64,000 nucleotides of DNA from a virus. The stretch lies in the IMG/VR virus record IMGVR_UViG_3300029791_000191; one strand, 5' to 3'. Position numbers and translations under genes: made by a program. Shown here piece by piece: positions 6,043-25,394 of this stretch (positions within the stretch are counted from its first letter, which is position 1; every line of letters begins with the position of its first letter). The notes under the pieces were generated by a model. It worked only from the letters and a program-made list of their open reading frames with translations. It was not told the origin of the DNA and made no database searches.

Positions 6043-6117
6043 GTGATAAGTAGCTCAGTTGGGAGAAAGAGCGCACTACAAAAGTGAGGTCGGTGGTTCG
6101 AGTCCACTCTTATCACA
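6043..6117 (+). tRNA. tRNA-like gene with aberrant D and anticodon arms (possible degenerate or unusual tRNA; anticodon not assignable by eye)
   Basis: 8-bp acceptor complementarity GTGATAAG/CTTATCAC, D stem GCTC..GAGC with 12-nt loop, canonical T arm GGTGG-TTCGAGT-CCACT and variable AGGTC as in tRNA-Ile/Ala. Only 13 nt remain for the anticodon arm, where 17 are expected. Confidence 0.4.
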
Positions 6118-6158
6118 GGCAATTAAATTAAAGTTTAAAATTCAGGAGGTATTTATCA

Positions 6159-7238: not shown

Positions 7239-7320
7239 CCACCCATGGTGGAATTGGCAGACACGTTAGATTTAGGTTCTAATGCTTAATAGCGTGAGAG
7301 TTCGAGTCTCTCTGGGTGGA
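7239..7320 (+). tRNA. tRNA-Leu (anticodon UAG), type II with long variable arm
   Basis: Acceptor CCACCCA/TGGGTGG, anticodon stem TTAGA/TCTAA with loop TTTAGGT, variable arm TGCTTAATAGCG, T arm GAGAG-TTCGAGT-CTCTC. Confidence 0.7.
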
Positions 7321-7344: not shown

Positions 7345-7944
7345 ATGTTTCAAGTAGGAGATATAGTACAAGTAATAATAGTGCCTAAAAAATATAAACA
7401 ATATGATATTGCAGGTGCTACAGGCGTTGTAAAAACAGTTTATTCTAACAATATAAGAATACATATCTCTAGTTATTACAATGAAGAATCAGAAGAAGGA
7501 GATTTTTATTTTAAAGAAAATGAGCTAAATAATTTTACAAGAAAGGAAAATGATATGTCAATTATAGAACTTTGGGAGAAAAGAAGTATTGAAAAGATTG
7601 ATAAGGAAGCTGAAATTAAATTAATGGAATTGCTTGCAGAAGATGAATATACTCATGATTTAATTTTACACATGAATGATCTAAAAGATGCCGGGTTTAA
7701 AGTTGAAATACCAAATAATATTTATGATATGACTTCTGATTATACCAGAGGAATGAGAACTATTACTTTAAGTTCAGCAGAAGAGAAAAAAGTTGAAATT
7801 AAAAAAGTAGCAGAAGAAGTTGGTGTCTTATTAGAGATGTGTAAAGGAGACGTTGTTAAAGAAATGGAGATTCTTTGTAGCTATAGAGTTGTAGAGTACC
7901 CATTCGGGAGAATGACTGTTGGAGGTAATGCTTGTGGGAAATAA
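7345..7944 (+). CDS. hypothetical protein (199 aa)
   Basis: RBS AAAGGAG upstream; no motif recognised. Confidence 0.45.
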   Translation: MFQVGDIVQVIIVPKKYKQYDIAGATGVVKTVYSNNIRIHISSYYNEESEEGDFYFKENELNNFTRKENDMSIIELWEKRSIEKIDKEAEIKLMELLAEDEYTHDLILHMNDLKDAGFKVEIPNNIYDMTSDYTRGMRTITLSSAEEKKVEIKKVAEEVGVLLEMCKGDVVKEMEILCSYRVVEYPFGRMTVGGNACGK

Positions 7945-8494
7945 AAAGAAAGTTCTGATTGTAGTTGATGTGCAGAATGATTTTGTAACTGGCTCACTAG
8001 GTACGCCGGAAGCTCAAGCTATTGTACCTAAAATTAAAGAAAAGTTTGAAGAATATAAAAATAATGGGGATTATGTAGTGTATACAATGGATACACATAA
8101 TTCAGATTATTTGAATACTTCTGAGGGTAAAAAACTTCCTGTTGAACATTGTATATATCGAACTTCAGGGTGGGAGGTTATAGATGAAATTCATCCTGTA
8201 AAAAATAATTATAACAATTTTATGGTATGTAAAAAGTCAACTTTTGGTTATGAAGGCTGGGATTGGGAAGAAATATTTGGGACAGACAGTGATATAGACA
8301 ATTTAAACATTGAAATCATAGGTGTGTGTACAGACATCTGCGTTATCACAAATGCTCTTCTTATCAAAACTTATTATCCGGAGGCAGAGATCACAGTAGA
8401 TGCGTCATGTTGCGCTGGAACTACACCGGAGAAGCATAAAGCAGCTTTAGAGGTGATGAAAAGTTGTCAGATTAATGTGATAGGAGAGAAATAA
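7934..8494 (+). CDS. pncA: isochorismatase-family hydrolase, nicotinamidase (PncA)-like
   Basis: VLIVVDVQNDF N-terminal signature and catalytic-cysteine context GVCTDICV. Start ambiguous: GTG 7934 after GGAGGT, or TTG 7919. Confidence 0.65.
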   Translation: MGNKKKVLIVVDVQNDFVTGSLGTPEAQAIVPKIKEKFEEYKNNGDYVVYTMDTHNSDYLNTSEGKKLPVEHCIYRTSGWEVIDEIHPVKNNYNNFMVCKKSTFGYEGWDWEEIFGTDSDIDNLNIEIIGVCTDICVITNALLIKTYYPEAEITVDASCCAGTTPEKHKAALEVMKSCQINVIGEK

Positions 8495-9010: not shown

Positions 9011-9814
9011 ATGATTAAATTAAACGGTGTAGAAATCAAACTTGATAAATATCCGGATGGGACATTCTTATTTAAGAATATCCCACCCATCGGAGGATGG
9101 TGTAGAGATAATATTGAATGGTTCTTTGAATCAATGGAAGAATTAACAGCAGTTGAATATATTACTAGATATTGTTGGGATCATAGAGTAGTGCCTAATT
9201 TATATATGCCTTATATCCCAGATGCACGTATGGATCGAGTCAAGCATGAGAACGAATTATTTACTTTAAAATATTTTGCTCAGACTATTAATTCATTACA
9301 TTTTGGAAAAGTAGAAGTTTTAGATCCGCATTCTGATGTATCTGCCGCATTATTTAATAAAGTACATGTAGAATCCCCGAATCGAATGATTGAGGATGCT
9401 GTTAAGAAGATTGCGAGTAATAACCTTATGATGTTTTATCCGGATGCGGGATCCATGAAGCGATATTCTTCAGCAGTACATCTTCCATATGCTTTCGGTA
9501 TTAAGAATAGAGATTGGGAGACTGGAGAAATTAAAGGTTTAGATTTATCAGGTGAAATTAATCAACTGCCAGGTAAAGATATCCTTATTGTAGATGATAT
9601 CTGCAGCAGAGGTGGTACTTTTTATTATAGTGCTAAGAAACTAAAAGAAACAGGAGTAAATAAGATTTATCTTTATATAACTCATTGTGAGAATACTATT
9701 TATGAAGGAGAACTTCTGAAAAACAATGGACTGATTGAGAAGATTTATACGACAGATACGATTCTAACAAATCTGGAAAGTCCTAAGATTGAACTGGTTG
9801 AAAGGTTTAGATAA
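9011..9814 (+). CDS. Prs-family (ribose-phosphate pyrophosphokinase fold) phosphoribosyl-pyrophosphate enzyme; Prs or Adps-like
   Basis: Matches Prs motifs: MPYIPDARMDR (PYxxYARQDR), VEVLDPHS, FYPDAGSMKRY, PRPP loop ILIVDDICSRGGT; 267 aa. Confidence 0.65.
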   Translation: MIKLNGVEIKLDKYPDGTFLFKNIPPIGGWCRDNIEWFFESMEELTAVEYITRYCWDHRVVPNLYMPYIPDARMDRVKHENELFTLKYFAQTINSLHFGKVEVLDPHSDVSAALFNKVHVESPNRMIEDAVKKIASNNLMMFYPDAGSMKRYSSAVHLPYAFGIKNRDWETGEIKGLDLSGEINQLPGKDILIVDDICSRGGTFYYSAKKLKETGVNKIYLYITHCENTIYEGELLKNNGLIEKIYTTDTILTNLESPKIELVERFR

Positions 9815-10216: not shown

Positions 10217-10585
10217 ATGAAACCGATTATTAGTCCTTGGTTGATTTATTCTGCTAGTAGAGCAGATAATTTAACAACATTTTTTGGAATGATCGCAGGA
10301 ATATGCGGAGTTATTGCTATGTGTGCTTTATTTGCTGGATTAACCGGATATAACGAACCATTTAAGTTTAGAAAAACTATTAGCAAATTAATTATCGGAT
10401 GTGTTGTAATGACTATCATTACAATCATGACACCTAATACAGAAACAATATATACGATGGCAGTTGTAAATGAAATCACACCAGATAATATTCAAACAAT
10501 TGGCAAAACTGGTAAAGATGTAGTTGATTATATCACAGATCAGATTGATAAAATTGTAAATGACAAAGAGGAGGATAAAAAATAA
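10217..10585 (+). CDS. small integral membrane protein (122 aa)
   Basis: Hydrophobic segments; RBS GGGAGAT upstream. Confidence 0.4.
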   Translation: MKPIISPWLIYSASRADNLTTFFGMIAGICGVIAMCALFAGLTGYNEPFKFRKTISKLIIGCVVMTIITIMTPNTETIYTMAVVNEITPDNIQTIGKTGKDVVDYITDQIDKIVNDKEEDKK

Positions 10586-12060
10586 TGGATACCTTAGCAA
10601 TTCTGTTAAGCGATACTTACAAACAAGTACACCACAATATGTTTCCGAGAGGATTGACGAAGTTAGTCTCTTATTGGACTCCGAGAAGATCAATGTTAAA
10701 GGAGCAGGATCATATGGTTTTCTTCGGACTGCAGGCTTTTATTAAAGAATATCTTATTACATATTTTAAAAGAGATTTCTTTAAATTAAGCACTGATGAA
10801 GTTCAAGAACTTTATACAATTAGTATGGACATTCAGTTAGGAGAAGGAAATTACGATATTTCTCCAATCCTTAAACTTCACGAATTAGGGTATCTTCCGA
10901 TTCAGATCCGTGCATTACCGGAAGGTACATTAGTGCCTATGGGAGTGCCATGCATTGAAATCACGAATACACATCCAGATTTTGCATGGGTTGTGCAGTG
11001 GATTGAGTGTATTCTGCAGGTTGAGCTTTGGAAGCCGTGTGCTCATGCAACAATTGGACATATGTACAGAGAACTGGCAAATTTCTACTATAAAAAGACC
11101 TGCGACGACATTTTAAGACCTGAAATGGCCTGCTCAGACTTTGGAATGCGTGGAATGTCCTGTATGGAAGAAGCAGAGAGATGCTCCGTTGCTTGGCTAT
11201 TATCCTTTGATAAGACAAGTACGATCCCGGCAATTGATTATTTGGACAAATATTATTTCAATGACTGTAGCGTGAGTCATATTGGAATTGGTGCGATTTC
11301 TACCGAACATGCGGTCATGGCTTCAAATTATGCTGTGGACGGAGACGAAATTACATTTGTGAAAAGACTACTTACAGAATTATATCCGAATGCATCTTTC
11401 AGCATGGTATCTGATACATATGATTACTGGAACATGATTGACAATATTCTTCCAGCTTGCAAAAAAGAAATTATGCAGCACAATGGTAAGCTCTTGGTTC
11501 GTCCGGATTCTGGTGATATGGTAGAGATTTCAGTTAAGACTATCGAAAAACTCTGGAATACATTTGAAGGATCAGTAAATAGCAAAGGTTACAAAGTACT
11601 GGACCCTCATATTGGAATTATCTATGGTGATGGCTGTACTCTTAACAATGTAAAAAAGGTATGGGAAGAACTTGAGAAGAAAGGATTCGCTGCAAACAAC
11701 ATTGTATTTGGAGTTGGGGCTTTTTGTTTCTCGGCAGTTGTAGAACCTGATGGACGTATGGTCGTTGTAACCAGAGATATGTTCGGCATTGCTATGAAAG
11801 CTACATTTGGAGAAGTTAACGGACAACCGATTATGATTTACAAAGATCCAAAGACAGATGTAAGCCATTTAAAGAAATCTCATAAAGGATGTTGTCATGT
11901 ATATTACGATGAAAATGGAGAATTAAGGTGCAGAGATGGATATGACAGCTTTGTTTATGATGGGGCATTAAAAACTGTATTTAAAGACGGTGAAATATAT
12001 CATACAGAAATATTTAAAGAAATCAGAGACAGATTAAACGGAAGAAACAAAGATGAGTAA
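10585..12060 (+). CDS. NAMPT-family phosphoribosyltransferase (NadV / Namat-like)
   Basis: 491 aa; N-terminal LAILLSDTYKQVHHNMFP resembles the NAMPT signature LLATDSYKVTHYKQYP; size and position next to the Prs-like gene. Confidence 0.6.
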   Translation: MDTLAILLSDTYKQVHHNMFPRGLTKLVSYWTPRRSMLKEQDHMVFFGLQAFIKEYLITYFKRDFFKLSTDEVQELYTISMDIQLGEGNYDISPILKLHELGYLPIQIRALPEGTLVPMGVPCIEITNTHPDFAWVVQWIECILQVELWKPCAHATIGHMYRELANFYYKKTCDDILRPEMACSDFGMRGMSCMEEAERCSVAWLLSFDKTSTIPAIDYLDKYYFNDCSVSHIGIGAISTEHAVMASNYAVDGDEITFVKRLLTELYPNASFSMVSDTYDYWNMIDNILPACKKEIMQHNGKLLVRPDSGDMVEISVKTIEKLWNTFEGSVNSKGYKVLDPHIGIIYGDGCTLNNVKKVWEELEKKGFAANNIVFGVGAFCFSAVVEPDGRMVVVTRDMFGIAMKATFGEVNGQPIMIYKDPKTDVSHLKKSHKGCCHVYYDENGELRCRDGYDSFVYDGALKTVFKDGEIYHTEIFKEIRDRLNGRNKDE

Positions 12061-12526
12061 AATTACAGATTATTTATTAAAAGATGATGTGATTGTAGTA
12101 ATGGATGTAGATGGAGTACTTGCTCCGTATGAGTTTTCTGAATTAAGTCATAGTATGACTGACGATGAATGGGACAGACTTGTAGCTTCCGGTGAGAATC
12201 CGTATAAAGATGTGCGTCCGATTAAATTAATGCAAGAGTTTATTCAGAAGAAAGGCGTGGATAAAGTATATACATGTTCAAAGAGTCCTCTAAGTGAAAT
12301 CCCTGGCAAAAAAGCTTTTATCAAAGACAATTACAATCTTCCAGATGATAATATCTATTTCACTTTAGAAAAAACAGAAAAACTTACTGTGCTTCAGACG
12401 TTACAGCAAAAGCTTGGGCTTAAGCCATCTCAGATTGCAATTGTAGAGGATACAGTAAAAACTTTGGATTATATTCGTGCACATAGTGATTTTGTAACCG
12501 TACATGTTTCATCATTTATGGAGTAG
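12053..12526 (+). CDS. HAD-superfamily hydrolase (5'-nucleotidase-like)
   Basis: Motif I VMDVDGVLA (DxDG) near the N-terminus; 157 aa. Confidence 0.45.
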   Translation: MSKITDYLLKDDVIVVMDVDGVLAPYEFSELSHSMTDDEWDRLVASGENPYKDVRPIKLMQEFIQKKGVDKVYTCSKSPLSEIPGKKAFIKDNYNLPDDNIYFTLEKTEKLTVLQTLQQKLGLKPSQIAIVEDTVKTLDYIRAHSDFVTVHVSSFME

Positions 12527-12543: not shown

Positions 12544-12951
12544 ATGAGTAGAACATATTTTACTGATTCCGTTTCAGATCTTTGTCAGGGGATTATTGAT
12601 AAAATAGATACTTATGAAAAACGAATTAAATACCTAGAAAAAGAAAACAAGAAGCTCAAAGATGAGCATTATAAAGATTCTGAAATGCAGAGAATGGAAG
12701 TAGAACTGAAAAAAGCGAAAGAGGATCTGTATAGAGGATTTCCAATTTCAGAAAAAGAACAAGAGAAAATCAGAGAGTGGGAATTAAAACATGATGCTGA
12801 GAAACATGGTCTGAAAACTTCTAAACAGAGAGCAATGGGGCATGGTTGCATAGGCGGCTCTCTTACATGGTGCTTTACACCAACATCAATCGGAACTATT
12901 GGAGAAGTGATTTGCTCCTGTGGCGAGAAGTTTACATTTCAGGATTTATAG
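12544..12951 (+). CDS. hypothetical coiled-coil protein with C-terminal Cys cluster (135 aa)
   Basis: ORF with RBS; CxxC-like spacing at the C-terminus. Confidence 0.4.
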   Translation: MSRTYFTDSVSDLCQGIIDKIDTYEKRIKYLEKENKKLKDEHYKDSEMQRMEVELKKAKEDLYRGFPISEKEQEKIREWELKHDAEKHGLKTSKQRAMGHGCIGGSLTWCFTPTSIGTIGEVICSCGEKFTFQDL

Positions 12952-12961
12952 GAAAAGATTT

Positions 12962-13462
12962 ATGATTAAAATTATTGAAGGTAACATTGTAGATGCACAG
13001 ACCGATTATATAATTCATCAAGTTAATTGCCAAGGAGAAATGAATACTGGAGTCGCTAAAGCATTAAGAGATTATGACGAAGGTATTTATATACATTATA
13101 GAAACGTCTGTAAATTACGTGAGTTTAATCCAGAATTACTTCTTGGAACATATGACGAGTACTTTATCAGAAGGAAAAATCAAGAGATATTGTCCTTATT
13201 TGCACAAGACAAGTATGGATATGATGGAAAACAGTATACTGATGTTAAAGCTTTTCGAGAAGGATTAAATTTTATTCGACAACAAATACCTGTTTATTGG
13301 TTTGATGCTGATAACAGACCTCACAAGACAACCATTGCACTCCCATATAAAATAGGCTGCGGAAGAGGAGGAGCAGACTGGGAAGTGGTTTATAAGATTA
13401 TAGAAGAAGAATTAAGTAGTTTTGAAGTAGAACTGTGGAAATTGGAGGAGCAGAATGTTTAA
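12962..13462 (+). CDS. macro domain protein (ADP-ribose binding or hydrolysing)
   Basis: IIHQVNCQGEMNTGVAKAL matches the macro domain N-terminal glycine-rich motif; about 167 aa. Confidence 0.6.
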   Translation: MIKIIEGNIVDAQTDYIIHQVNCQGEMNTGVAKALRDYDEGIYIHYRNVCKLREFNPELLLGTYDEYFIRRKNQEILSLFAQDKYGYDGKQYTDVKAFREGLNFIRQQIPVYWFDADNRPHKTTIALPYKIGCGRGGADWEVVYKIIEEELSSFEVELWKLEEQNV

Positions 13463-14600
13463 TGTAGAAAAAGCAACAAATGATTGTATTCAGTGGATTA
13501 GAGATTGGAGAGAAGAGAATGGTCCTGGATGTAATCTCATAGTAGGTATTTCCGGTGGCGTTGACTCTTTAGTAGCTGCTGAGCTATGTGTGGAAGCCGT
13601 TGGAGCTGACAAAGTTCTCGGAGTAATCATGCCGAACTATAAACAGGATGATATTGATGTGGCTTATGATATTTGCCAGCATGTATTAAACATTGATTAT
13701 CTTACTATTAATATTGGATCAGCTTATGATGATATTATTGATCAAATTGATGCTGCATTTAATGTAACAGATCAGACATTAATTAATCTCGCTCCTAGAC
13801 TAAGAATGACCACTCTATACGGGGTGTCACAGTCACACAATGGAAGAGTGGTTAATACATGTAACCTCAGTGAGGATTACATTGGATATGCCACTAGATA
13901 TGGAGACGCAGCTGGAGATTTTGCTCCATTGGCACAGTTTACAAAGGGAGAGGTAAAAAGAATCGGGCATTATTTAGGATTGCCTAAAAATTATGTAGAG
14001 AAGACCCCGTCGGATGGTTTATGTGGTAAATCAGACGAAGATAACTTTGGATTCACCTATGCAGTATTAGATAAATACATCCGTACAGGAGTGTGTGACG
14101 ATCCAGAAGTAAAAAGACGGATTGATCGTTTACATGAGAAGAATGAGTTTAAACTGAAACCAATGCAGTATTTTAATTATAAAGAGGAGAAAACAGATAT
14201 GAATATGTCACCAGATGAGATTTTAAAAGCATTTGAAAAAGCAGTAGCGAAAAAAGAAAAAGAGCATACTATTGGAGAAGAGCTTAGAAGCTGTGAGCGC
14301 CAGATTAAAGATGCTTTAGGCATTGATGTATATATTGTACCTAAAAATAAAACTGATAAACAGGTTTGTAAAACACTTTCGAAAGATGATATCACATTTG
14401 TAGGAAGAACAAAAGATATTGCTACAGGAAAAATTAGAACTACTGTAGGATTTAAAGATGGTACACAGACTTCTGTAGTCTTAAATGATTGGGAAGATGA
14501 AGATGATACTGAAAAAGCCATTATGTGGTGTTTGCTTAAGAAGTGTTTCAAATCAAAAAGAAGCTTAGAAAAAGTAATTTATTCAATGGAGGACATGTAA
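13455..14600 (+). CDS. nadE: NH3-dependent NAD+ synthetase (NadE) with about 110-aa C-terminal extension of unknown function
   Basis: PP-loop LIVGISGGVDSLVAA, then NadE-like core; extra C-terminal domain. Confidence 0.7.
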   Translation: MFNVEKATNDCIQWIRDWREENGPGCNLIVGISGGVDSLVAAELCVEAVGADKVLGVIMPNYKQDDIDVAYDICQHVLNIDYLTINIGSAYDDIIDQIDAAFNVTDQTLINLAPRLRMTTLYGVSQSHNGRVVNTCNLSEDYIGYATRYGDAAGDFAPLAQFTKGEVKRIGHYLGLPKNYVEKTPSDGLCGKSDEDNFGFTYAVLDKYIRTGVCDDPEVKRRIDRLHEKNEFKLKPMQYFNYKEEKTDMNMSPDEILKAFEKAVAKKEKEHTIGEELRSCERQIKDALGIDVYIVPKNKTDKQVCKTLSKDDITFVGRTKDIATGKIRTTVGFKDGTQTSVVLNDWEDEDDTEKAIMWCLLKKCFKSKRSLEKVIYSMEDM

Positions 14601-17103: not shown

Positions 17104-17105
17104 GA

Positions 17106-19727
17106 ATGAATTTTAATGGATTAAAAAGTAGCGAAGTAGAGGTTAGTAGGACTACATATGGAAGTAATAAGCTTCCGGAACCTGAATTGAAAAAATGGTA
17201 TCATTTTGCTAAGGAAGCATTAACTGAACCAATTACTATGATTCTAATAATAATTGCTTTGTTTCAGTTGGTTTTAGGCGCTATGGGAGTAATGTCTCTT
17301 TCTGAACCTGTAATGATTATAGTGGTTTTAGCTATTGTTACTGGAATTGCTATTAAGACAGGTCTAGGCGTACAGAAATCTGCAGCAGAGCTAAGAGCAA
17401 AAACGGCAGTTAGATATTGTGATGTTGTCCGAGATGGAAACGTACAGACAATTAATAAAGATGATCTGGTAGTAGGTGATTTAGTTCTATTGAGAACTGG
17501 ACAAGAGATTTTTGCAGATGGATTTATTGTTGATGGAGAAATTTCTGTTAATAACGCCGCTATCAATGGAGAGACAAAAGAATGTAGAAAAATTCCTAGT
17601 GCTAATTATAAGCATGTTAAAACAACATCAACTACTGCATATACGGATCAGTGTTCTCTCTTTGCAGGAACAGTTATCATGTCTGGTGAAGGAAAAATGA
17701 TTGTTACAGATGTTGGTGTTAATACAGTTAATGGTGATACTCTTGTCAAAATGCAGACTTTAGAGCCTCCTAAGACAGCTCTTGATATTGCTCTGGATCA
17801 TTTGTGTGATTTTATTTCAAAATGGGGAACAATTGCGGCAGCATTAGCATTTGTAATTATGACAATTACAGGTATCTTAAATGCTGGAAGCTTAAGTCAG
17901 TATTTCTTAGGAAGTATTCTTGAAAGTATTCAGAAGGTAGCACAGAATGTCTCAAATGCATTGACAATTATTGTTGCGGCTGTACCGGAAGGTCTGCCAC
18001 TCATTGTAAAACTTGTAACTAAACAGAATGTATCGACAATGGAAAAATTCAATATTCTTGCGAAGAATACTGGTAAAATTCCTGAATTGGCGTATGTTAA
18101 TTTAATTTGTACGGATAAGACAGGAACTCTCACAACAGGTGAAATGACCTCTACAGTTATGATTAACGGTAACTGTCAGGATATTTTTAATAAGGAAAGT
18201 TCGCTCAACGAGCTAATTGATTTAAACATTTGCATGAACAATAGCGCAGTGTTTGACTCTAATGGAAACATCACTGGTGGTAATTCGATTGATCGAGCAG
18301 TGCTTGATATGCTTTCTCCTGAAGATGCACAAAAAATACAGAATAAAGCTATCATAAAGAAACGTGTTCCATTTAGTAGTGAAAATAAATTCTCTGCAAT
18401 TACTTTAAGTAATGGAGCAAATGATTTTACTGTTTATAAGGGTGCACCAGAAAAACTGATTGAGAAATGCAAAACTTATCTCGATAATGATGGCAATGTA
18501 ACTGAGCTAACAGAAGAAAAACGAAAAGCTTTGAAAAGTCATATTAAGGGATTAACAGAGAAAGCAATGAGGTGTATTGCATTGACTATCTCAGATAAAG
18601 CTGATGATGGTCTCCCTGATGAAATGAATTTCCTTGGAGTCATTGGAGTTGTTGACCCGGTTAGGAATGAAGTTCCAGAAGCAGTAAAAATTGCTCATAA
18701 AGCTGGAATTCAGGTAATTGAAATTACTGGTGATTGCATGGAGACGGCTAAGGCTGTTGCTATGGAAGCTGGCATTTATAAGCCTGGAGACTTAGCAGTT
18801 ACTAATGATGAGTTTGAGGCAATGTCAGATGTAAAAGTAAAAGAAATTATTCCACAGTTAAGAGTAATTTCCAGATGCTCACCGAATACGAAACTTCGTC
18901 TTGTAACATTAGCGCAAGAAATTGGAATGTCTGTAGCAATGACAGGTGATGGTGTGAACGATGCTCCTGCATTAAAGAAAGCAGATGTAGGCTTTGGAAT
19001 GCAAGACGGATCTGATGTAGCAAAAGAAGCAGCAGACATTGTTTTGACGGACAATAATTTTGCAAGTGTAGTAAAAGCAGTCGAACTTGGTAGAACATTT
19101 ATGCATAACATTATGATGTTCCTTGAATTCCAGCTGCCTATCAATATTTCGTTGTTGATCTTAAGTATGGTATTTCCAATTATTTCTGGTGGCTCTGCTC
19201 TATTAGCAGCAGTTCAGATCCTTATTGTAAATATCATCATGGATTCACTTAACTCATTAAGCTTTGGTGGAGAACCGCCAAAAGAAGAATATATGAATGA
19301 AGAGCCTATCATGAAAGGATCCGGATTATTTATCCGTGGAGCGAAAGGGAGAATTGCATTAAGTTCAATTGTATTTATTGCTTTATTTGGTGTAATTACA
19401 TTTGGTCCAGTTGGAAATATGTTTGCAACAAAACTTTCGGCTATGACAGCGAGATTCGCTTTATTGTGTCTAATGGCAGTATTTAATGGATTCACTATTA
19501 GAACAGATAGTATAAATCTTTTCAAAGGAATTAAAAATAACAAATTATTTATGTATATCGCATTGGGTATTTTTGCAATGACTGTAGTTTTGTGTAACTT
19601 TGTAGGAAATCTAGTACAGACAACTCCAATGGATGTTAAACAGTGGATTGTAGTCCTTATGACAGCATTTATGGTTGTGCCTGTAGATTGGATTAGAAAA
19701 GCAATTTGTAAGAAAGGAAGTAAGTAA
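17106..19727 (+). CDS. P-type cation-transporting ATPase (type II, Ca2+/Mg2+-like)
   Basis: Phosphorylation motif ICTDKTGTLT, hinge MTGDGVNDAPALKKADVG, multiple TM helices; 873 aa. Confidence 0.8.
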   Translation: MNFNGLKSSEVEVSRTTYGSNKLPEPELKKWYHFAKEALTEPITMILIIIALFQLVLGAMGVMSLSEPVMIIVVLAIVTGIAIKTGLGVQKSAAELRAKTAVRYCDVVRDGNVQTINKDDLVVGDLVLLRTGQEIFADGFIVDGEISVNNAAINGETKECRKIPSANYKHVKTTSTTAYTDQCSLFAGTVIMSGEGKMIVTDVGVNTVNGDTLVKMQTLEPPKTALDIALDHLCDFISKWGTIAAALAFVIMTITGILNAGSLSQYFLGSILESIQKVAQNVSNALTIIVAAVPEGLPLIVKLVTKQNVSTMEKFNILAKNTGKIPELAYVNLICTDKTGTLTTGEMTSTVMINGNCQDIFNKESSLNELIDLNICMNNSAVFDSNGNITGGNSIDRAVLDMLSPEDAQKIQNKAIIKKRVPFSSENKFSAITLSNGANDFTVYKGAPEKLIEKCKTYLDNDGNVTELTEEKRKALKSHIKGLTEKAMRCIALTISDKADDGLPDEMNFLGVIGVVDPVRNEVPEAVKIAHKAGIQVIEITGDCMETAKAVAMEAGIYKPGDLAVTNDEFEAMSDVKVKEIIPQLRVISRCSPNTKLRLVTLAQEIGMSVAMTGDGVNDAPALKKADVGFGMQDGSDVAKEAADIVLTDNNFASVVKAVELGRTFMHNIMMFLEFQLPINISLLILSMVFPIISGGSALLAAVQILIVNIIMDSLNSLSFGGEPPKEEYMNEEPIMKGSGLFIRGAKGRIALSSIVFIALFGVITFGPVGNMFATKLSAMTARFALLCLMAVFNGFTIRTDSINLFKGIKNNKLFMYIALGIFAMTVVLCNFVGNLVQTTPMDVKQWIVVLMTAFMVVPVDWIRKAICKKGSK

Positions 19728-19728
19728 A

Positions 19729-20496
19729 ATGGGATTTTTGGGAAAATTATTCGGAAAAAAAGATGAGGAAGCAGCAGTAGAGTTATCTTCTGCTGTAACT
19801 CAGCAACCTGTATATGAAGAAAAGTTACAGACAATTGATATGTCTAAGCACAATGAAAATCTTGGCAAAGTACTTATTGATATGTCTAAGGGAAGCAAGA
19901 TTGATATGACAAAACATACGGCTAGAGTAGCTCTTGCAATGGATTATTCAGGAAGTATGGATTGGCTGTATGATAATGGATCTGTACAGGAAACCATTTC
20001 TCGTTTGTTGCCTATTGCTCTAAGATTTGACGATAATGGAGAACTTGAGAGTTGGCTGTTCTCAAATGGAGCAGAGCGCTTAAAAGCTGCTAACGCTGAT
20101 AATTATAGTAGCTATGTTAAAAATGTTATGAAAAAAGCTCATATGTATATGGGTGGTACTAATTATGCTCCTGTATTGAAAGAAATGGTTACATATTATA
20201 AAGATATCGAGCCAAGTGAGATTCCAGCATTTATCATCTTTATTACAGATGGTGAGAACAGTGATACTTTTGCCACCAATGCAGCTATTAAAGAGCTTTC
20301 AGAGTACAACATCTTCGTGCAGTTCATAGGAATTGGAGATGAAGATTTTGACTATTTGAAATCTCTTGATGATATGAAAGGTAGAAAACATGACAACACC
20401 GGTTTTACAGCAGTAAAAGACATGAATAAAATGTCTGATGAACAGTTATATACAGAGATTCTTCGTCAGTATAAAGACTGGCTGAATAATAAATAA
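19729..20496 (+). CDS. von Willebrand factor A (vWA) domain protein, TerY-like
   Basis: MIDAS motif DYSGSM, GGTNY, ITDGE. Confidence 0.6.
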   Translation: MGFLGKLFGKKDEEAAVELSSAVTQQPVYEEKLQTIDMSKHNENLGKVLIDMSKGSKIDMTKHTARVALAMDYSGSMDWLYDNGSVQETISRLLPIALRFDDNGELESWLFSNGAERLKAANADNYSSYVKNVMKKAHMYMGGTNYAPVLKEMVTYYKDIEPSEIPAFIIFITDGENSDTFATNAAIKELSEYNIFVQFIGIGDEDFDYLKSLDDMKGRKHDNTGFTAVKDMNKMSDEQLYTEILRQYKDWLNNK

Positions 20497-20513
20497 AAAG
20501 GAGATAAAGAGAT

Positions 20514-21152
20514 ATGGCAGTAATCAACATGAGTAAAAACCAGAAAATTAGTATGGTAAAAGAGGATGGTACAGGTATTAAGAACTTCTTCATTGGAGTC
20601 AATTGGGATCAGAACCGTTATGCTGGTGAAGCAGATATTGACTTTGATATCAATGGATTTTTAACAGATTCAAGTCGCAAAGTAGTATACCCAGAAGATT
20701 TAGTAAACTATAAAACCTATGAAGATGGCTCTGCATATCCTTGGGTAGATTATTCAGGAGACAATAAAACTGGTGACGATTCTCAGGGAATGATTTTCAA
20801 TGGAAAGCATTATGACGAATATTTCATTGTGCATGCTGATACTTTCCCGAAAGATAAAACAGAATTTACTATCTGCTTAACAATTTTTAGGGCCTTACAG
20901 CGTATGCAGAATTTTGGAATGGTCTCCAATGCAATTATGACAATTTGTGATTACGACAATCCAGATGGTGATAAGTATGAATATGATCTGTCTGAGAATG
21001 AAAACTTTGAAAAATTGAATGCAGTAGAAATGGGTAAATTATACCGTTACGGAGATGGATTCAAATTCCAGGCATTAGGTTCCGGCTATGTAGGAGGTAT
21101 GACAGAACTGTTTAAAAACTTTGGGCTTGATATTGATGAGGGGAGAGACTAA
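20514..21152 (+). CDS. TerD-family protein (tellurite resistance / Ca2+-binding stress protein family)
   Basis: Strong TerD signatures: MAVINMSKNQKISM.., GVNWD, DIDFDINGFL, LQRMQNFGMVSNA, LYRYGDGFKFQALGSGYVGGM. Confidence 0.8.
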   Translation: MAVINMSKNQKISMVKEDGTGIKNFFIGVNWDQNRYAGEADIDFDINGFLTDSSRKVVYPEDLVNYKTYEDGSAYPWVDYSGDNKTGDDSQGMIFNGKHYDEYFIVHADTFPKDKTEFTICLTIFRALQRMQNFGMVSNAIMTICDYDNPDGDKYEYDLSENENFEKLNAVEMGKLYRYGDGFKFQALGSGYVGGMTELFKNFGLDIDEGRD

Positions 21153-21901
21153 TGAATATTACAGCTGGAGCAATTATTATAATTGTTATTTTAGTACTCG
21201 TAGGACTTTGTTTCTTTTTTAATAGTAAAATTGGAAAGAGAGTAAGGATAAGAGCATCTGGCACGGCAAACGAAGCTATTCAGAAAGATGCGTCTACACC
21301 TGAAGGAGCTAAAGCATATTATAATGCCGCTATTGAAAAGAAAGAAGATGAACTTCAGCAGGAAAATGTAAGATATCAACAGATGCTTGGTAAGATTTCC
21401 AATTATGAAGATGACCTGTTCCATTTGAAGAAAGATGCCATGAAAGCAGATGTAAATGTAAATGCTTGTGTGGATCGAGGAGATGACGAAGCAGCAAAAG
21501 TCTACTTAAAAGAACAACAGGAGCTGAATGATAAGATTGATTTTATTAAAAATACATTAAAAGAATGGAAAGAGAATGCTGATGTGCAGAAAGAAAAAGT
21601 AGAAGTACTACAGCAACAGCTTAATGATTTAAAAGCAGAAAAAGAAAGTGCAGTTTTAACTCTGGAAACAGCTCAGGCATCAAAAGCTTTTAATGTAACA
21701 CCGGGAGTATCTTCTAGTGAAGAGGAAAAGATGCTAGAGAAAGTACGTGACGGAGTTAAAAAGCAAAAAGAGGCTGCTGATGGAGCTAGGATCGTTTATG
21801 AAAGTTCTACTATTGTGCAAAAACAGCGTCTGGATAAGAAAATGAAAGATGATGAAATTAATAAAAAGTTGCAGGAACTGAAAACAAAGAAAGGCAAATA
21901 A
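21152..21901 (+). CDS. membrane-anchored coiled-coil protein (249 aa)
   Basis: N-terminal TM helix followed by long heptad-like region. Confidence 0.4.
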   Translation: MNITAGAIIIIVILVLVGLCFFFNSKIGKRVRIRASGTANEAIQKDASTPEGAKAYYNAAIEKKEDELQQENVRYQQMLGKISNYEDDLFHLKKDAMKADVNVNACVDRGDDEAAKVYLKEQQELNDKIDFIKNTLKEWKENADVQKEKVEVLQQQLNDLKAEKESAVLTLETAQASKAFNVTPGVSSSEEEKMLEKVRDGVKKQKEAADGARIVYESSTIVQKQRLDKKMKDDEINKKLQELKTKKGK

Positions 21902-22328: not shown

Positions 22329-22751
22329 ATGATTAATAGTTTTACTGGAGATTATTACTTTTTAAGTAACTTTTATATGGCCCCGGTAAGTTATAACGGA
22401 TGGGACTATACAAATAATGAAGCAGCTTTTCAAGCACAGAAAACAAAAAATCGTAGACTAAAATTTCAGTTATTCTCTCAAGCTAGCCCATCAGAAGCAA
22501 AGGCAGCAGGTAGAAAGATTGATTTGAGATCAGATTGGGAAGAAGTGAAAGATAAAGTAATGTATGAAATCGTACTGGCTAAATTCACTCAGAATCCAGA
22601 CCTTAAGGAAAAATTACTTGCTACAGGAGATGAATATTTGGAAGAGGGTAATACTTGGGGAGATACTATTTGGGGAACTGTAGATGGAGTTGGAGAAAAT
22701 AGGCTTGGGAAGATACTTATGAGAGTGAGAGATGAATTAAATGAAACTTAA
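22329..22751 (+). CDS. NADAR / YbiA-like (DUF1768) domain protein
   Basis: FTGDYYFLSNFY signature (FxGxYxFLSNF) and overall 140-aa size. Confidence 0.65.
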   Translation: MINSFTGDYYFLSNFYMAPVSYNGWDYTNNEAAFQAQKTKNRRLKFQLFSQASPSEAKAAGRKIDLRSDWEEVKDKVMYEIVLAKFTQNPDLKEKLLATGDEYLEEGNTWGDTIWGTVDGVGENRLGKILMRVRDELNET

Positions 22752-22900
22752 CATATTTTTTATCATTCTTGATGCTATTTTTATAGCAGTATCATTGGTA
22801 GACCTTATTACTTATAAAAATTTATTTAGTTTAATGCTAGTAGCTTTTTTCGCTTGGACATTTGTAATTGATATTAAAGAATATAAAGGAGACAAATAAC

Positions 22901-23152
22901 ATGGTAAAAACATTAAAAGAAACAACAGAAATGATGGTTAGCCCAGATTATAAAGAAAGATTCAAAGCTGAATATTACCAGTTAATGCTTAGATTCAGAG
23001 GTTTACAGTCTATGCTCTTTAAATGGGACAATGGAACTCTTAGTTTTGAACCAACATGCCCAAGAAGTACTTATAATATTCAGATTGATGCTATGGCAAG
23101 CTATTTAGCTATCTTAGAAGCTAGGGCTGTTATGGAAGGTATTGAATTATAA
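22901..23152 (+). CDS. hypothetical protein (about 83 aa)
   Basis: ATG 22901 with AAGGAG 7 nt upstream. Confidence 0.35.
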   Translation: MVKTLKETTEMMVSPDYKERFKAEYYQLMLRFRGLQSMLFKWDNGTLSFEPTCPRSTYNIQIDAMASYLAILEARAVMEGIEL

Positions 23153-23161
23153 AGGAGAGAG

Positions 23162-23330
23162 TATGAATCCAGTATTTGTATTTTTAATATTGGTTGGAGC
23201 TGTAGTTTTATGGTTCCTATTATCTGCATTGTTTTATCCATTCGGACGATTCTTGCATAGAATTTGGAAAGATGCAGTAGACGAAATAAACAGAGAAGAA
23301 AATAAAGAAAAAGATAAGGAGAATGAGTAA
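23162..23330 (+). CDS. small single-pass membrane protein
   Basis: ATG 23162 after AAGGAGAGAG; hydrophobic helix VFVFLILVGAVVLWFLL. Confidence 0.35.
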
Positions 23331-24301
23331 TGAAAAAGAAAAAAGGTTTTTTAGGTGGGGTTGGATTAGCAGTAATAATTGCAGCAGGATTAATTTGTGT
23401 AGCAAAGTGCACAGTAAGAGTTCCTGCTGGTTATGTAGCTGTAGAATACAAGATGAACGGTGGAATTTCAAAAGATACTCTTTCACAGGGATGGAATTTG
23501 ATTTCACCTACAGTAAAAACATCACTGTATTCAATTGGTATTGAACAGTCTTATCTGACTTCAGAAGATAAAGGTGATTCACCAAAAGATGAGAGTTTTA
23601 AAACTCCTACCGCAGATGGGAAACAGCTTCTTGTTGATTTGGAATTCTCTTATAAATTCGATCAGGATCAAGTTGCTGATGTATTTACAAGATTTAAAGG
23701 TCAGTCCGGAGAAAGTGTAAAAAATACTTTCATTAAACCAAAGATGAAAGCGTGGACACAGGAAGTAACTGCTAAGTATCCGGTAACAGATGTATTTGGT
23801 GATAAACGCCAGGAACTGAATGAAGCACTTGACAAATACTTGAAAAAGAAATTTGAGCCATATGGAATCATCATTGATACTGTAAACTTTACTTCAATTT
23901 CTACAGATGATGAAACTCAGGCTGCTATTCAGAAGAAGGTAAATGCACAGCAGGAACTGGAACTTGCAAATATTGAAGCTAAGACTGCAAAGGTACAGGC
24001 AGATAAAGATAAGGAAGTTGCTCTCATCGCAGCGGAGCAGGATAAAGAGAAAGCCGCTATTGAAGCTGAACAGGCGAAAATCACTGCGGAAGGTAAAGCT
24101 GAAGCTACAAGAATTAAAGCGGATGCTGAAGCAGAAGCAAATAAAAAGATCGCTGAGTCACTTACTCCAGAACTTATTGAGAAACAGAAGATTGATAAGT
24201 GGAATGGTGATGTGCCGAAGGTACAAGGTGGAAATGCTGCAACAATTGTTGACGCAGGAGAATTAACATCAGGCAATGTAGCAACTGTTGAAAATAAATA
24301 A
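23330..24301 (+). CDS. SPFH / band-7 (prohibitin-flotillin-HflK-like) membrane protein
   Basis: N-terminal TM, SPFH core (VPAGYVAVEYKMNGG...), C-terminal Ala/Glu/Lys-rich coiled coil. Confidence 0.65.
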   Translation: MKKKKGFLGGVGLAVIIAAGLICVAKCTVRVPAGYVAVEYKMNGGISKDTLSQGWNLISPTVKTSLYSIGIEQSYLTSEDKGDSPKDESFKTPTADGKQLLVDLEFSYKFDQDQVADVFTRFKGQSGESVKNTFIKPKMKAWTQEVTAKYPVTDVFGDKRQELNEALDKYLKKKFEPYGIIIDTVNFTSISTDDETQAAIQKKVNAQQELELANIEAKTAKVQADKDKEVALIAAEQDKEKAAIEAEQAKITAEGKAEATRIKADAEAEANKKIAESLTPELIEKQKIDKWNGDVPKVQGGNAATIVDAGELTSGNVATVENK

Positions 24302-25155: not shown

Positions 25156-25394
25156 TTAAGCAAACCATGGGATGGATTTCTGCTATATGTGGAGTAATTG
25201 GAGCTATATGTAGTGGTTGGAAGTTAATGCTTTTGCCAGTAGTAACAATATTAAACATGATTGCAGATAAAAAATTAAACCTGTGTATTTTACTAATTTC
25301 AATTATGAAAATGTTCTTTGCGATACCTATAGCATATTTCATGATTCTTGTAGGATTTTCATTTGCTACATATTGTTGGAGGTGGTGGAAATAA
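25152..25394 (+). CDS. small membrane protein (80 aa)
   Basis: Two hydrophobic helices. Confidence 0.35.
   Translation: MIKQTMGWISAICGVIGAICSGWKLMLLPVVTILNMIADKKLNLCILLISIMKMFFAIPIAYFMILVGFSFATYCWRWWK

Follow-up and report, generated by a model that had tools for sequence, protein, structure and literature searches.

We propose, with about even confidence, that two proteins encoded by a prophage, a NADAR and a macrodomain protein, liberate ADP-ribose as accessory enzymes in a NAD+-reconstitution cassette of the NARP1 type, and are not a matched pair of antidotes to DarTG. Both enzymes probably help the phage to withstand host defences in which NAD+ is destroyed or misused. The two enzyme types are each already known from other phages, and both proteins belong to ADP-ribose-processing families, as had been stated in a first-pass annotation made from the sequence.

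The stretch of DNA analysed here, 64,000 nucleotides long (the window), is phage DNA, specifically an integrated prophage, and its host is a Firmicute-like gut bacterium of 43% GC. The phage source assumed in that annotation is confirmed by an integrase gene (51295-52557, minus strand) beside a tRNA-Arg gene (52831-52903), by a shift in GC content from 0.33-0.35 up to about 52 kb to 0.42-0.43 thereafter, and by viral relatives in IMG/VR, where NADAR genes 97-100% identical to that of the window lie on contigs of 46-163 kb. The best nucleotide match among known phages spans only 401 bp, so the known-phage collection holds no annotated close relative. RNA-repair genes are also part of the prophage, coding for a kinase-HD protein (3142-4074), RlaP (16069-17103) and an RNA ligase (28003-29301). 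A Pfam scan of about 65 window ORFs, which took in only part of the ORFs shorter than 100 aa and of a group of about 10 ORFs of at least 100 aa that includes several antisense overlaps, found no gene for DarT or another ART and, in the same subset, none for KptA/Tpt1 or a 2H phosphoesterase.

The NADAR protein (22329..22751, plus strand, ATG start) is 140 aa long and has a YbiA-type core fold without an N-terminal extension. The ORF that had been assigned to a NADAR/YbiA protein proved exact: it matches Pfam NADAR (PF08719) from residue 8 with 103.9 bits (E 1.3e-29, cut-off 35.1) and the NCBIfam model of YbiA-type N-glycosidases, TIGR02464, with 82.5 bits (cut-off 73.7), and its AF2 model (pLDDT 83.9) superposes on E. 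coli YbiA (2B3W), the closest solved match at 37% identity, with a TM of 0.84, and on the P. nicotianae NADAR (8BAU) with a TM of 0.78. When mapped by alignment on residues E43, K50, R79, W89, R93, E125, D130 and W133 of 8BAU/PnNADAR, the catalytic and ADPr-binding set of the window protein (E31, K38, R62, W70, K74, E106, D112 and W115) is complete; among 30 NADAR homologues R62 is nearly invariant and the other seven residues are invariant. E31, K38 and E106 correspond to E88, K95 and D171 of the E. coli C7 NADAR, which mutagenesis has shown to be needed for guanine-ADPr hydrolysis (PMC11543638). As judged from these alignments, the window NADAR keeps every residue required for that reaction.

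Its closest validated relative is an orphan NADAR of Escherichia phage IrisVonRoten, AdfN-Bas32 (bas32_0066), which neutralises DarT1 and with which three phages were rescued from DarTG1 (Johannesman et al. 2025, PMC11825919); the two share 45.5% identity over 99% of the length (pairwise E 5e-43). Like AdfN-Bas32 (149 aa), the window NADAR is short and stand-alone and carries the same E...K...E-G-N-T-W-G-D-x-x-W-G motifs; being phage-encoded, homologous to a validated AdfN and intact in its catalytic residues, it would qualify as an AdfN by sequence. The two differ in host, E. coli for AdfN-Bas32, and in surroundings: AdfN-Bas32 lies among nucleotide-metabolism genes without a NAD cassette, whereas the clade of the window NADAR is mostly linked to NARP1-like genes. 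Other NADAR types were considered and rejected. The protein is not of the T4 gp30.3 type, as it stays under the cut-off of the Phage_30_3 model (19.7 bits, cut-off 36). DarG1, the DarT1-associated antitoxin, was set aside because there is no DarT1 or ART-like match among the neighbours and because the protein has 140 aa, no N-terminal extension and a Glu106 as in the YbiA subfamily, not an Asp; DarG1 NADARs are N-terminally extended YbiA cores of about 229-234 aa with Asp at the PnNADAR E125 position, and the extension of DarT1-linked NADARs has been proposed to bind ssDNA (PMC11543638).

The most likely adduct for this enzyme, by homology to AdfN-Bas32, is guanine-ADPr on phage DNA made by DarT1-like or other guanine-specific transferases; the alternative is a soluble N-linked ADPR derivative. 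The first-pass annotation had called the guanine modification DarT2-type, which is mistaken: guanine is the target of DarT1, and thymidine that of DarT2 (PMC11543638). Four NADAR subtypes, YbiA among them, have been tested in vitro and all hydrolysed guanosine-ADPr, yet E. coli YbiA and T4 gp30.3, which hydrolyse G-ADPr in vitro, gave no protection from DarT1 in cells (PMC11125620). ADPr activities of NADARs have been measured solely on nucleic acids in which ADPr is linked to guanine or cytidine.

The macrodomain protein (12962..13462, plus strand, ATG start), of 166 aa, is of the ALC1-like class and a candidate Adpp; the program-made ORF begins at a GTG at 12920, and homologues begin with MIK, which corresponds to 12962. 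Against the Pfam Macro model (PF01661) it scores 13.2 bits (E 0.086), under the cut-off of 22, although a number of homologues, 41-47% identical to it, do have precomputed PF01661 matches; the call therefore had to come from structure prediction and profile searches. The AF2 model (pLDDT 92.6) matches BT1257, DarG, Poa1p and TARG1 in Foldseek (E 1e-10 to 1e-9, TM 0.7-0.8, probability 1.00), with BT1257 (2FG1) as the top structural match (TM 0.76-0.80). In the PDB the family profile finds DarG macrodomains (E 5e-12) and Poa1p (E 2e-8), and DarG macrodomains are also the best solved match of the single sequence (E 2e-5). The macro domain annotated here is thus upheld by fold and profile, though it lies under the Pfam cut-off, and on this predicted structure and these profile matches we assign the ORF to the macrodomains.

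The catalytic site of this macrodomain is not that of DarG, to which it had been likened. The family alignment holds the motifs H19-Q-V-N22-C, an invariant Q82 and P-Y-K-I-G-C-G-R-G-G-A-D-W, with N22 and the ADP-ribose-binding loop G132-x-x-G136-G137 invariant. In its ALC1-like character, the ADP-ribose-binding Asn (N22) and the conserved G-x-G-G loop, the protein resembles DarG (5M31/5M3I) and AdfM, the DarG2-like macrodomain of chimalliviruses known as PhiKZ gp104 (Morgan et al. 2026, PMC13309987). In contrast to these, which have a catalytic Lys in an F-P-T-K motif, it has the invariant Gln: in the profile alignment Q82 falls at the catalytic Lys position of DarG/TARG1. That Lys is K80 in T. 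aquaticus DarG, and the K80A mutant is inactive. In place of His19, DarG has Asn and AdfM, which is 20% identical to the window protein, has Thr. A DarG or DarG2-like antitoxin in the strict sense was rejected on the replacement of the Lys, on a score of 49.5 bits with the NCBIfam DarG model (cut-off 250) and on the single 166-aa domain, without a DarT-binding domain or a DarT neighbour. AdfB of ICP1 is no analogue either, being a 77-aa DarT binder without a macrodomain. Of the catalytic residues that the first-pass annotation had proposed to align, the NADAR has the full set, and the macrodomain has Gln for the catalytic Lys of DarG.

The missing Lys does not by itself argue against activity on DNA, and we rejected it as an argument, since SCO6735, which has Gln at this site, cleaves thymidine-ADPr DNA efficiently, besides acting on Glu/Asp-ADPr proteins (Hlousek-Kasun et al. 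2022, PMC9411070); a role of the macrodomain on thymidine-ADPr DNA is by this analogy possible. Features of the SCO6735/Bt_1257 subclass are present: at the catalytic-Lys position Q82 is matched to the Gln of BT1257, with no gaps in the long 'mobile' loop that follows. The window protein is 16-24% identical to SCO6735 and Bt_1257, which, unlike it, are bacterial chromosomal proteins, and no NAD-salvage context has been reported for SCO6735. The isoelectric point was likewise dropped as a proxy for DNA binding, as the DNA-acting AdfM (pI 5.05) is just as acidic as the window protein (pI 5.04). Family comparisons with hhalign left the macrodomain unclassified, since it matches the Adpp family with E 1.4e-19 and the AdfM family just as well (E 1.5e-18), while those two families match each other with E 3.8e-5 only, and PHROG 335 ('phosphatase') gave no classification because it contains the window protein, Gary-type Adpp and PhiKZ AdfM alike.

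Genomic position points to Adpp. In Vibrio phage Gary this Poa1p-like macrodomain (KNV71_gp137, of NARP1-AP) is encoded in an Adps/Namat operon; it produces ADPR from ADPR-1''-phosphate, and aRES is not overcome without it. Of NARP1 operons, 15% come with a macro gene (10.64898/2026.01.28.702374). The window protein resembles Gary Adpp in being a Poa1p-like single domain of about 160 aa encoded in an Adps-like/Namat-like operon, and has the motifs H-Q-x-N-C and (G/A)-Q in common with Gary-type Adpp, represented in the motif comparison by Cilsick gp173, 98.7% identical to the Gary protein; its identity to Gary Adpp is only 26%. Counted from the NAMPT-like gene, the macro gene lies two ORFs downstream, or one when the HAD-like ORF described below is taken as part of the former, with the Prs-like gene upstream, and so falls under the definition of Osterman et al., by which an Adpp gene is a macro gene at most two genes from an Adps/Namat pair. 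In lineages whose macro proteins are 74%, 50%, 46%, 44% and 42% identical to that of the window, the gene stays between the NAMPT-like gene and NadE, and an isochorismatase gene and a Prs-like gene usually lie upstream of the block. A shared pathway accounts better than counter-defence clustering for a gene that keeps its place between Namat-like and NadE in this way.

The NAD island reported by the first-pass annotation is a conserved, co-oriented cassette in the order nicotinamidase, Adps-like, Namat-like, macro and NadE, all on the plus strand. Its first gene (7919..8494) encodes a PncA-type hydrolase of the isochorismatase family (Pfam Isochorismatase, E 5e-24), whose best PDB match is the P. 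horikoshii nicotinamidase 1ILW (E 2e-16) and in which D17, D58-x-H60, H77, a Lys near position 105 and the Cys within 'TDICV', which we take to be the catalytic and metal-binding residues of nicotinamidases, are identical to those of 1ILW. The Prs-like protein (9011..9814; PHROG 619, E 1e-67) is a candidate Adps, the ADP-ribose pyrophosphokinase of NARP1: every NCBIfam Prs model stays far under its cut-off (for example 89.7 against 113), and its homologues in phages adjoin NAMPT-like genes, including those of the NARP1-AP operons of Thalassavirus. The next gene (10585..12060) encodes an atypical, Namat-like transferase of the NAMPT family (Pfam NAMPT_N and NAPRTase; NCBIfam PRK09198, 458.6, cut-off 405), and the last (13455..14600) a NAD+ synthase, NadE, of 381 aa (Pfam NAD_synthase, E 5.9e-49; TIGR00552, 167.8, cut-off 63.65), with a C-terminal extension of about 140 aa that its relatives, of 247-268 aa, do not have. 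Two further plus-strand ORFs precede the macro gene. A 157-aa ORF with weak HAD matches (12053..12526) overlaps the end of the Namat-like gene and is fused to it in relatives L001-L004, forming one 645-aa gene (tblastn, 98% identity); directly upstream of the macro gene, a conserved 135-aa protein with a coiled coil and a Cys-rich C-terminus (12544..12951) gave no family match in profile searches including NCBIfam, and its position is kept in close relatives (71-100% identity across L024-L045). A NARP3 assignment of the island was rejected, as it has no PnuC and NadR genes.

The resemblance to NARP1 (Adps plus Namat; Osterman et al. 2024) lies in a Prs-like gene beside a NAMPT-like gene in a phage, and in the conserved core F186, R189, H242, R306, D308 and TRD of the Namat-like protein (Namat structure, PMC12774641). 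The published Namat signature is GSX-Phi-X-Phi-X-Phi-TRD, and the nicotinamide-binding residue is Asp215 (PMC12774641). Unlike NARP1, the window cassette carries nicotinamidase and NadE, and its Namat-like enzyme has an insert before the TRD and Ser212 in place of the nicotinamide-binding Asp (D215 in SPbetaL1, D219 in human NAMPT). In our alignment with three Namats and one Nampt, this position holds Ser in the window protein and its L015 counterpart, Ala in those of L011 and L012, and Asp in all four references; the adenine-clamp motif reads G-A-F-C-F-S-A, a 10-residue insert and V-V-T-R-D, retaining the aromatic residue at position 3 and differing clearly from the Nampt form G-G-G-L-L-Q. 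Because the Namat-like enzyme deviates from the signature and has no nicotinamide-binding Asp, the cassette may not run canonical NARP1 chemistry.

In the window itself the NADAR gene stands outside the cassette, 7.7 kb downstream of NadE, parted from it by an unrelated block (RlaP, P-type ATPase, TerF/TerD and PspA-like genes); its neighbours are the PspA-like gene, two ORFs of 60 and 52 aa and a crAss001_48/Sequestin-like gene. The proposed link to NAD+ regeneration is nevertheless real, and stronger than the first-pass annotation knew: cassette genes lie within 10 kb of the NADAR gene in 65 of the 80 closest IMG/VR NADAR loci, and nine of 14 NADAR clusters, formed at 90% identity, are linked to the cassette. 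The order macro-NADAR-NadE is contiguous in 29 of these 80 loci, three others have NamptL-NADAR-NadE without a macro gene, and in close relatives of the prophage a SLOG-domain gene lies between macro and NADAR (macro-SLOG-x-NADAR). Related NADARs, those of AdfN-Bas32, phage FADO and SPbetaL3, sit away from any NARP1 genes; in FADO a macro gene lies two genes from the NADAR gene, and the annotation of about 5 kb around them shows no NARP1 gene.

In the route that we favour, a defence of the RES type would split NAD+ into nicotinamide and ADPR-1''-phosphate, the Adpp-like macrodomain would strip the phosphate, the Adps-like enzyme would pyrophosphorylate the freed ADP-ribose and the Namat-like enzyme would re-attach the pyridine. 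The phosphatase step is supported by the published Adpp precedent for the same Adps/Namat operon arrangement. The NADAR, as an N-glycosidase, would free ADP-ribose from an N-linked adduct; if this is guanine-ADPr, its removal would both repair phage DNA and return ADP-ribose to the pool. The suggestion that the phage counters DarTG accordingly divides between the enzymes: it is supported for the NADAR, given its intact catalytic set and its identity to an anti-DarT1 factor, and is not supported for the macrodomain, whose place between the Namat-like and NadE genes fits an Adpp countering RES-type phosphorolysis of NAD+ and not an ADP-ribosyltransferase antidote.

More tentatively, the cassette may be a 'deamidated' variant of NARP1 with two substrate-funnel enzymes, the macrodomain and the NADAR. 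The nicotinamidase would convert the nicotinamide released by defence NADases to nicotinic acid, the Adps-like enzyme would make ADPR-pyrophosphate, and the Namat-like enzyme, with Ser or Ala for the amide-recognising Asp, would join the two into deamido-NAD, which NadE would amidate to NAD+. ADPR-1''-phosphate would enter this route through the macrodomain, and N-linked ADP-ribose adducts, from ADP-ribosylated DNA bases or from soluble conjugates, through the NADAR.

The NADAR could also act off DNA altogether, as a third 'funnel' enzyme that turns a soluble N-glycosidic ADPR derivative, for example the product of a base exchange or an immune signal that is N-linked, into ADP-ribose for the Adps-like enzyme, parallel to Adpp (ADPR-1P) and RyDEP (2'/3'cADPR). 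This is a possibility that we regard with some doubt. The contiguous macro-NADAR-NadE loci, and those in which NADAR joins NamptL and NadE without a macro gene, are consistent with it, as are the SLOG-domain gene of the relatives, the bare 140-aa YbiA-type core without the proposed ssDNA-binding extension, and the precedent of Adpp and RyDEP, the two other accessory enzymes of NARP1 loci, which work likewise; Iyer et al. (2022) expected soluble ADPr derivatives to be the main targets of NADAR and Macro domains in phages, and noted that NADAR genes adjoin NAD+ salvage genes (PMC9503650). However, the literature shows NADAR activity on nucleic acids only and demonstrates no such soluble substrate, and AdfN-Bas32, equally short, still neutralises DarT1 in cells. 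At the opposite pole, both enzymes might clear phage DNA, the macrodomain reversing the thymidine-ADPr of DarT2 in the manner of DarG2, AdfM or SCO6735 and the NADAR the guanine-ADPr of DarT1 like AdfN, so that the nearby NAD genes would reflect counter-defence clustering only. We think this unlikely, even though DarG macrodomains are the macro protein's closest solved relatives in sequence, its profile matches the AdfM family, its top structural match BT1257 belongs to a Gln-bearing subclass that cleaves dT-ADPr DNA very efficiently, the NADAR resembles a validated AdfN, and the FADO pair has no annotated NARP1 gene nearby: the macro position is conserved down to 42% identity, the Adpp role is experimentally proven for this very arrangement, the missing catalytic Lys, the low DarG score and the low identity to AdfM all speak against a DarG-like enzyme, and no DarT or transferase gene was seen among the window ORFs scanned.

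Two further readings leave defence aside. The enzymes could dispose of by-products of RNA repair, in which ADPR-1''-2''-cyclic phosphate, made by a 2'-phosphotransferase (KptA/Tpt1), becomes ADPR-1''P and is dephosphorylated by a Poa1p-like macrodomain, with the NADAR assisting. Poa1p, the ADPR-1''P phosphatase of yeast tRNA splicing, is indeed similar to the macro protein, the prophage has its RNA ligase, kinase-HD and RlaP genes, and Iyer et al. (2022) linked Macro and NADAR to RNA repair (PMC9503650); yet neither KptA/Tpt1 nor a 2H phosphoesterase was found among the ORFs scanned, and both genes have genes of NAD+ synthesis, and no RNA ligases, as their conserved neighbours, so that we consider this very unlikely. 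That the NADAR is a housekeeping N-glycosidase of the YbiA type, destroying reactive intermediates of the riboflavin pathway without any link to ADP-ribose, seems to us barely probable: although it passes the NCBIfam 'riboflavin biosynthesis intermediates N-glycosidase' model and has YbiA as its best solved match, no riboflavin genes are nearby, its conserved partners are NAD+/ADP-ribose genes, YbiA itself hydrolyses G-ADPr in vitro (PMC11125620), and its closest validated relative is an anti-DarT1 factor.

The pairing of Macro with NADAR and their linkage to NAD salvage were reported bioinformatically in 2022 by Iyer, Burroughs, Anantharaman and Aravind, who found the two co-occurring in phage genomes above chance (PMC9503650), and the macro-SLOG-x-NADAR order of the prophage's close relatives is like the neighbourhoods that they described. 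That survey, bioinformatic only, predates NARP1, Adpp and AdfN, and the part of it drawn on here does not describe the six-gene cassette (PMC9503650). We found no description in the literature of the six-gene cassette, in which the Namat-like enzyme carries Ser for the nicotinamide-binding Asp, and in the NARP1, Adpp and RyDEP literature examined neither nicotinamidase and NadE nor a NADAR between macro and NadE is discussed. NAD+ depletion and ADP-ribosylation are major anti-phage strategies of bacteria, and descriptions of the phage answers NARP1, NARP1-AP, RyDEP, AdfN and AdfM date only from 2024 onwards; such answers are brought together in one operon by this locus and by its many relatives in gut phages. 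A NADAR that feeds the NAD+ pathway, or a Ser-variant transferase that uses nicotinic acid, would enlarge the known viral repertoire for rebuilding NAD+ and would assign a physiological role to part of the widespread NADAR family. Should the deamidated variant prove true, NADAR would be a new class of accessory enzyme in phage NAD+ reconstitution; if neither holds, the locus is one more phage with known AdfN-like and Adpp-like genes.

The published operon nearest in arrangement, that of Gary, differs from the window cassette in gene order and content. The Adpp gene of Gary lies between Adps and Namat, whereas the window macro gene follows the Namat-like gene and precedes NadE, and the window cassette adds nicotinamidase, NadE (and NADAR in relatives) and the atypical Namat-like enzyme. 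Accessory enzymes of another kind also occur in NARP1 loci: RyDEP, an RyR-domain glycosidase inserted in them, turns 2'/3'cADPR signals into ADPR for NAD+ synthesis and is, besides Adpp, their second published accessory 'funnel' enzyme.

We best read the NADAR and macro proteins of this prophage as two putative enzymes that would both release ADP-ribose and that are genomically coupled to an extended cassette for rebuilding NAD+, resembling the phage pathway NARP1; we infer the enzymatic steps of NADAR, macro and cassette from homology, residue conservation, predicted fold and gene neighbourhood. When IMG/VR was scanned with a NADAR alignment and the 10-kb flanks of the 80 closest loci were searched with the cassette proteins of the window, macro, NADAR and NadE genes were contiguous in 29 loci, nearly all of which also have isochorismatase, Prs-like and NAMPT-like genes ahead of them. 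A further 11 of the 80, from close relatives of the prophage (Prs-like proteins 85-98% identical), have the order macro, SLOG-domain gene, unknown gene, NADAR, NadE; 3 have NAMPT-like, NADAR and NadE without macro; 20 show the layout of the window, in which NADAR lies downstream of macro and NadE by more than 3 kb (about 7-9 kb); and 2 are linked to the cassette in other ways. No cassette gene was detected in the 10-kb flanks of the remaining 15, only 6 of which extend for 8 kb or more on each side. At 90% identity, 9 of the 14 NADAR clusters from these loci are cassette-linked. P0184, an abundant homologue (66% identical), occurs in 301 indexed blocks of the assembly collection, and the six-gene order was found at 5 of the 5 places displayed. 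NADAR genes 97-100% identical to that of the window occur in IMG/VR viral contigs of 46-163 kb. Not every related NADAR is linked in this way: those of Bas32 and SPbetaL3 lie apart from NARP1 genes, and in FADO (L022 4195-5471), a phage whose NARP1 was studied experimentally, the COG3236/NADAR gene fado_35 is two genes from the macro gene fado_33, with no Prs- or NAMPT-like annotation within about 5 kb. In the close relatives L035-L045, a SLOG-family (YAcAr) gene lies between macro and NADAR (L035 8722-9147) and an NMN-adenylyltransferase-like cytidylyltransferase gene follows NadE (L035 11783-12358); neither had a tblastn match within the 64-kb window.

The NADAR gene (22329-22751, + strand) was correctly recognised in the first-pass annotation. 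Its 140-aa product (Pfam NADAR, E = 1.3e-29; NCBIfam TIGR02464, above cut-off) has a predicted structure (pLDDT 83.9) that superposes on E. coli YbiA with a TM-score of 0.84 and on the Phytophthora NADAR-ADPr complex with one of 0.78. In a phmmer alignment with 8BAU, using the numbering of Schuller et al. 2023 (PMC11543638), the catalytic set is complete: E31, K38, R62, W70, K74, E106, D112 and W115 correspond to PnNADAR E43, K50, R79, W89, R93, E125, D130 and W133, and all eight are invariant or nearly so across 30 NADAR homologues. The Glu at position 106 is the state of the YbiA subfamily, whereas DarT1-linked NADARs have Asp there and T4-type phage NADARs have His (PMC11543638). The closest experimentally characterised relative is AdfN-Bas32 (bas32_0066, phage IrisVonRoten; 45.5% identity over 99% of the length), ahead of YbiA (37% identity). 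AdfN-Bas32 alone neutralises DarT1, restoring 3 phages on DarTG1 hosts and none on DarTG2 hosts (Johannesman et al. 2025, PMC11825919), and an AdfN-type N-glycosidase releasing ADP-ribose is the function that best fits our protein. An anti-DarT1 role nevertheless calls for caution, because the in vitro hydrolysis of G-ADPr by YbiA and T4 gp30.3 is not matched by protection of cells from DarT1 (PMC11125620), and because the window NADAR lacks the N-terminal extension of the DarT1-linked antitoxins. The proposal that both proteins counter DarTG-type ADP-ribosyltransferases is thus reasonable for NADAR; its assignment of guanine to DarT2 has to be corrected, guanine being the target of DarT1 and thymidine that of DarT2 (PMC11543638).

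The 166-aa product of the other gene (12962-13462, + strand) misses the Pfam Macro threshold (E = 0.086), but by its predicted structure (pLDDT 92.6) it is a macrodomain: Foldseek matched the model to BT1257, the top structural match, and to DarG, Poa1p and TARG1 (E about 1e-10 to 1e-9), and a profile of its 32-member family finds DarG macrodomains (E = 5e-12), BT1257 (7e-10) and Poa1p (2e-8). What such a protein would do is less straightforward. The DarG-like label suggested initially does not hold at the family level, since the catalytic Lys of DarG and TARG1 is replaced in this family by an invariant Gln (DarG K80A is inactive) and the protein scores 49.5 bits against the DarG equivalog model, whose cut-off is 250; we therefore rejected membership of the DarG family. 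Activity on DNA is compatible with the missing Lys, because SCO6735, of which BT1257 is a structural twin, also has Gln at this position and yet outperforms DarG on thymidine-ADPr DNA and rescues cells from DarT (PMC9411070). A validated anti-DarT2 macrodomain exists in AdfM of PhiKZ (Morgan et al. 2026, PMC13309987), 20% identical to ours. The other candidate is Adpp, the Poa1p-like macrodomain of some NARP1 operons. By dephosphorylating the ADPR-1''-phosphate that RES-domain defence proteins produce, Adpp enables NARP1 to rebuild NAD+, and 15% of all NARP1 operons have a Macro gene (Osterman et al., bioRxiv January 2026, 10.64898/2026.01.28.702374). As Adpp reference we took Vibrio phage Cilsick gp173, which shares 98.7% identity with the validated Gary Adpp and, as in Gary, sits in the Adps-x-Namat position; it is 26% identical to the window macro and has the H-Q-x-N-C and (G/A)-Q motifs in common with it.

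Sequence alone is insufficient to decide between these functions: one PHROG holds AdfM, Adpp and the window macro, and in profile-profile comparisons our family matches those of Adpp (E = 1.4e-19) and AdfM (E = 1.5e-18) equally well, whereas these two match each other at only 3.8e-5. Gene context tips the balance towards Adpp. In the contigs examined, macro homologues at 74%, 50%, 46%, 44%, 44% and 42% identity all lie shortly after the NAMPT-like gene and shortly before NadE, usually with isochorismatase and Prs-like genes upstream, which is the arrangement in which function has been demonstrated for Adpp. An Adpp-type phosphatase releasing ADP-ribose is accordingly our best reading of the macro protein, which may combine both activities.

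The surrounding NAD island, also noted initially, encodes a nicotinamidase (7919-8494; best solved relative the P. horikoshii enzyme, E = 2e-16), a Prs-like protein far under every curated Prs cut-off (9011-9814), a NAMPT-family enzyme (10585-12060) and, after macro, a 381-aa NadE (13455-14600); a HAD-like ORF and then a 135-aa unknown protein separate the NAMPT-family and macro genes. The nicotinamidase Asp, Lys, Cys and Asp-His-His positions, which we take to be catalytic or metal-binding, are identical in the aligned P. horikoshii enzyme. In NARP1, a Prs-like and NAMPT-like pair, Adps converts ADP-ribose to ADPR-pyrophosphate and Namat joins nicotinamide to it. The window pair has homologues in Felixounavirus (to which the validated Bas63 belongs), Kayvirus, ICP1 and Thalassavirus, where the pairing is published or was seen here. 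The NAMPT-like ORF overlaps the HAD-like ORF by 8 bases (10585-12526), and the close relatives L001-L004 have both called as a single 645-aa fusion protein; the separation may be either a real split or a sequence frameshift. At its C-terminus NadE is extended by about 140 aa that match no family, while the NadE proteins of related cassettes have 247-268 aa and are only 50-59% identical to it, suggesting replacement of the gene in this lineage.

The Namat-like enzyme is itself atypical. We aligned it with three Namats of Adps-containing operons and one NARP2-type Nampt, all four of which keep the Asp that hydrogen-bonds nicotinamide (SPbetaL1 D215; PMC12774641) and whose human equivalent, D219, is described as fundamental to NAMPT substrate specificity; the window enzyme (Ser212) and that of the gut-phage lineage L015 have Ser, and in two further gut-phage lineages the residue is Ala. 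The published Namat adenine-clamp signature (PMC12774641) is only partial in the window enzyme (residues about 376-398) and is broken by a 10-residue insert. All four Ser/Ala lineages encode nicotinamidase and NadE, which were absent from the canonical NARP1 operons inspected. Human NAMPT carrying D219S accepts nicotinic acid. Together these points hint at a NARP1 variant that would use nicotinic acid in a deamidated route, proceeding from nicotinamide through nicotinic acid and deamido-NAD to NAD+.

As a pattern the pairing was already known, and for both families a phage member has been validated. A bioinformatic survey (Iyer et al. 2022, PMC9503650) reports among its results that DNA-virus genomes carry Macro and NADAR together more often than chance predicts, describes Macro-SLOG-NADAR neighbourhoods and NADAR genes adjoining NAD+ salvage genes, and predicts that the phage proteins act mainly on soluble ADP-ribose derivatives. 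The papers on NARP1, Adpp and RyDEP (a RyR-domain accessory enzyme) do not mention NADAR, and we came across no publication describing the six-gene cassette. The initial observation is confirmed and its interpretation partly supported.

The window is chromosomal DNA of a Firmicute-like host with a large prophage that makes up most of it, as indicated by a tyrosine integrase (51295-52557, - strand) adjoining tRNA-Arg(CCG) (52831-52903), a GC content rising from 0.33-0.35 up to about 52 kb to 0.42-0.43 beyond, and bacterial-type genes past the junction: LigA (56248-58206), MetA (58232-59164), a choline-binding polysaccharide deacetylase and an NlpC/P60 protein. A nucleotide search of the reference collection found no close annotated phage relative. 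Among the phage genes are a replication module, ribonucleotide reductase, RNA-repair genes (an AAA_33 kinase fused to an HD domain, 3142-4074, and an RNA ligase, 28003-29301) and an NAD+-dependent DNA ligase (355-2400), because of which phage replication itself consumes NAD+. Two calcineurin-like phosphoesterases (25283-26128 and 27279-27836) also belong to the RNA-repair set; KptA/Tpt1 was not found among the window ORFs scanned. Four tRNA genes (Gln-TTG, Met-CAT, Cys-ACA, Leu-TAG; 5253-7320) lie just upstream of the NAD cassette. NadE and NADAR are separated by genes for an RlaP nucleotidyltransferase, an 873-aa P-type cation ATPase, vWA-TerF, TerD and a PspA/IM30-like protein (16069-21901), a stress/membrane-type block that is unusual as phage cargo; the close relative L003 has wholly lost it, through a deletion ending inside the NADAR gene, of which the last 40 codons are kept. 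Just downstream of NADAR are a small protein (22868-23152) matching PHROG 774 (function unknown) and PF21825, named crAss001_48 in one Pfam copy and 'Sequestin' in another, and then an SPFH/Band-7 protein (23330-24301). The DNA polymerase is apparently in two ORFs (36629-39193 and 40025-41413), which match successive stretches of a single PHROG polymerase profile and are divided by a NUMOD4 homing-endonuclease-like gene (39302-39946).
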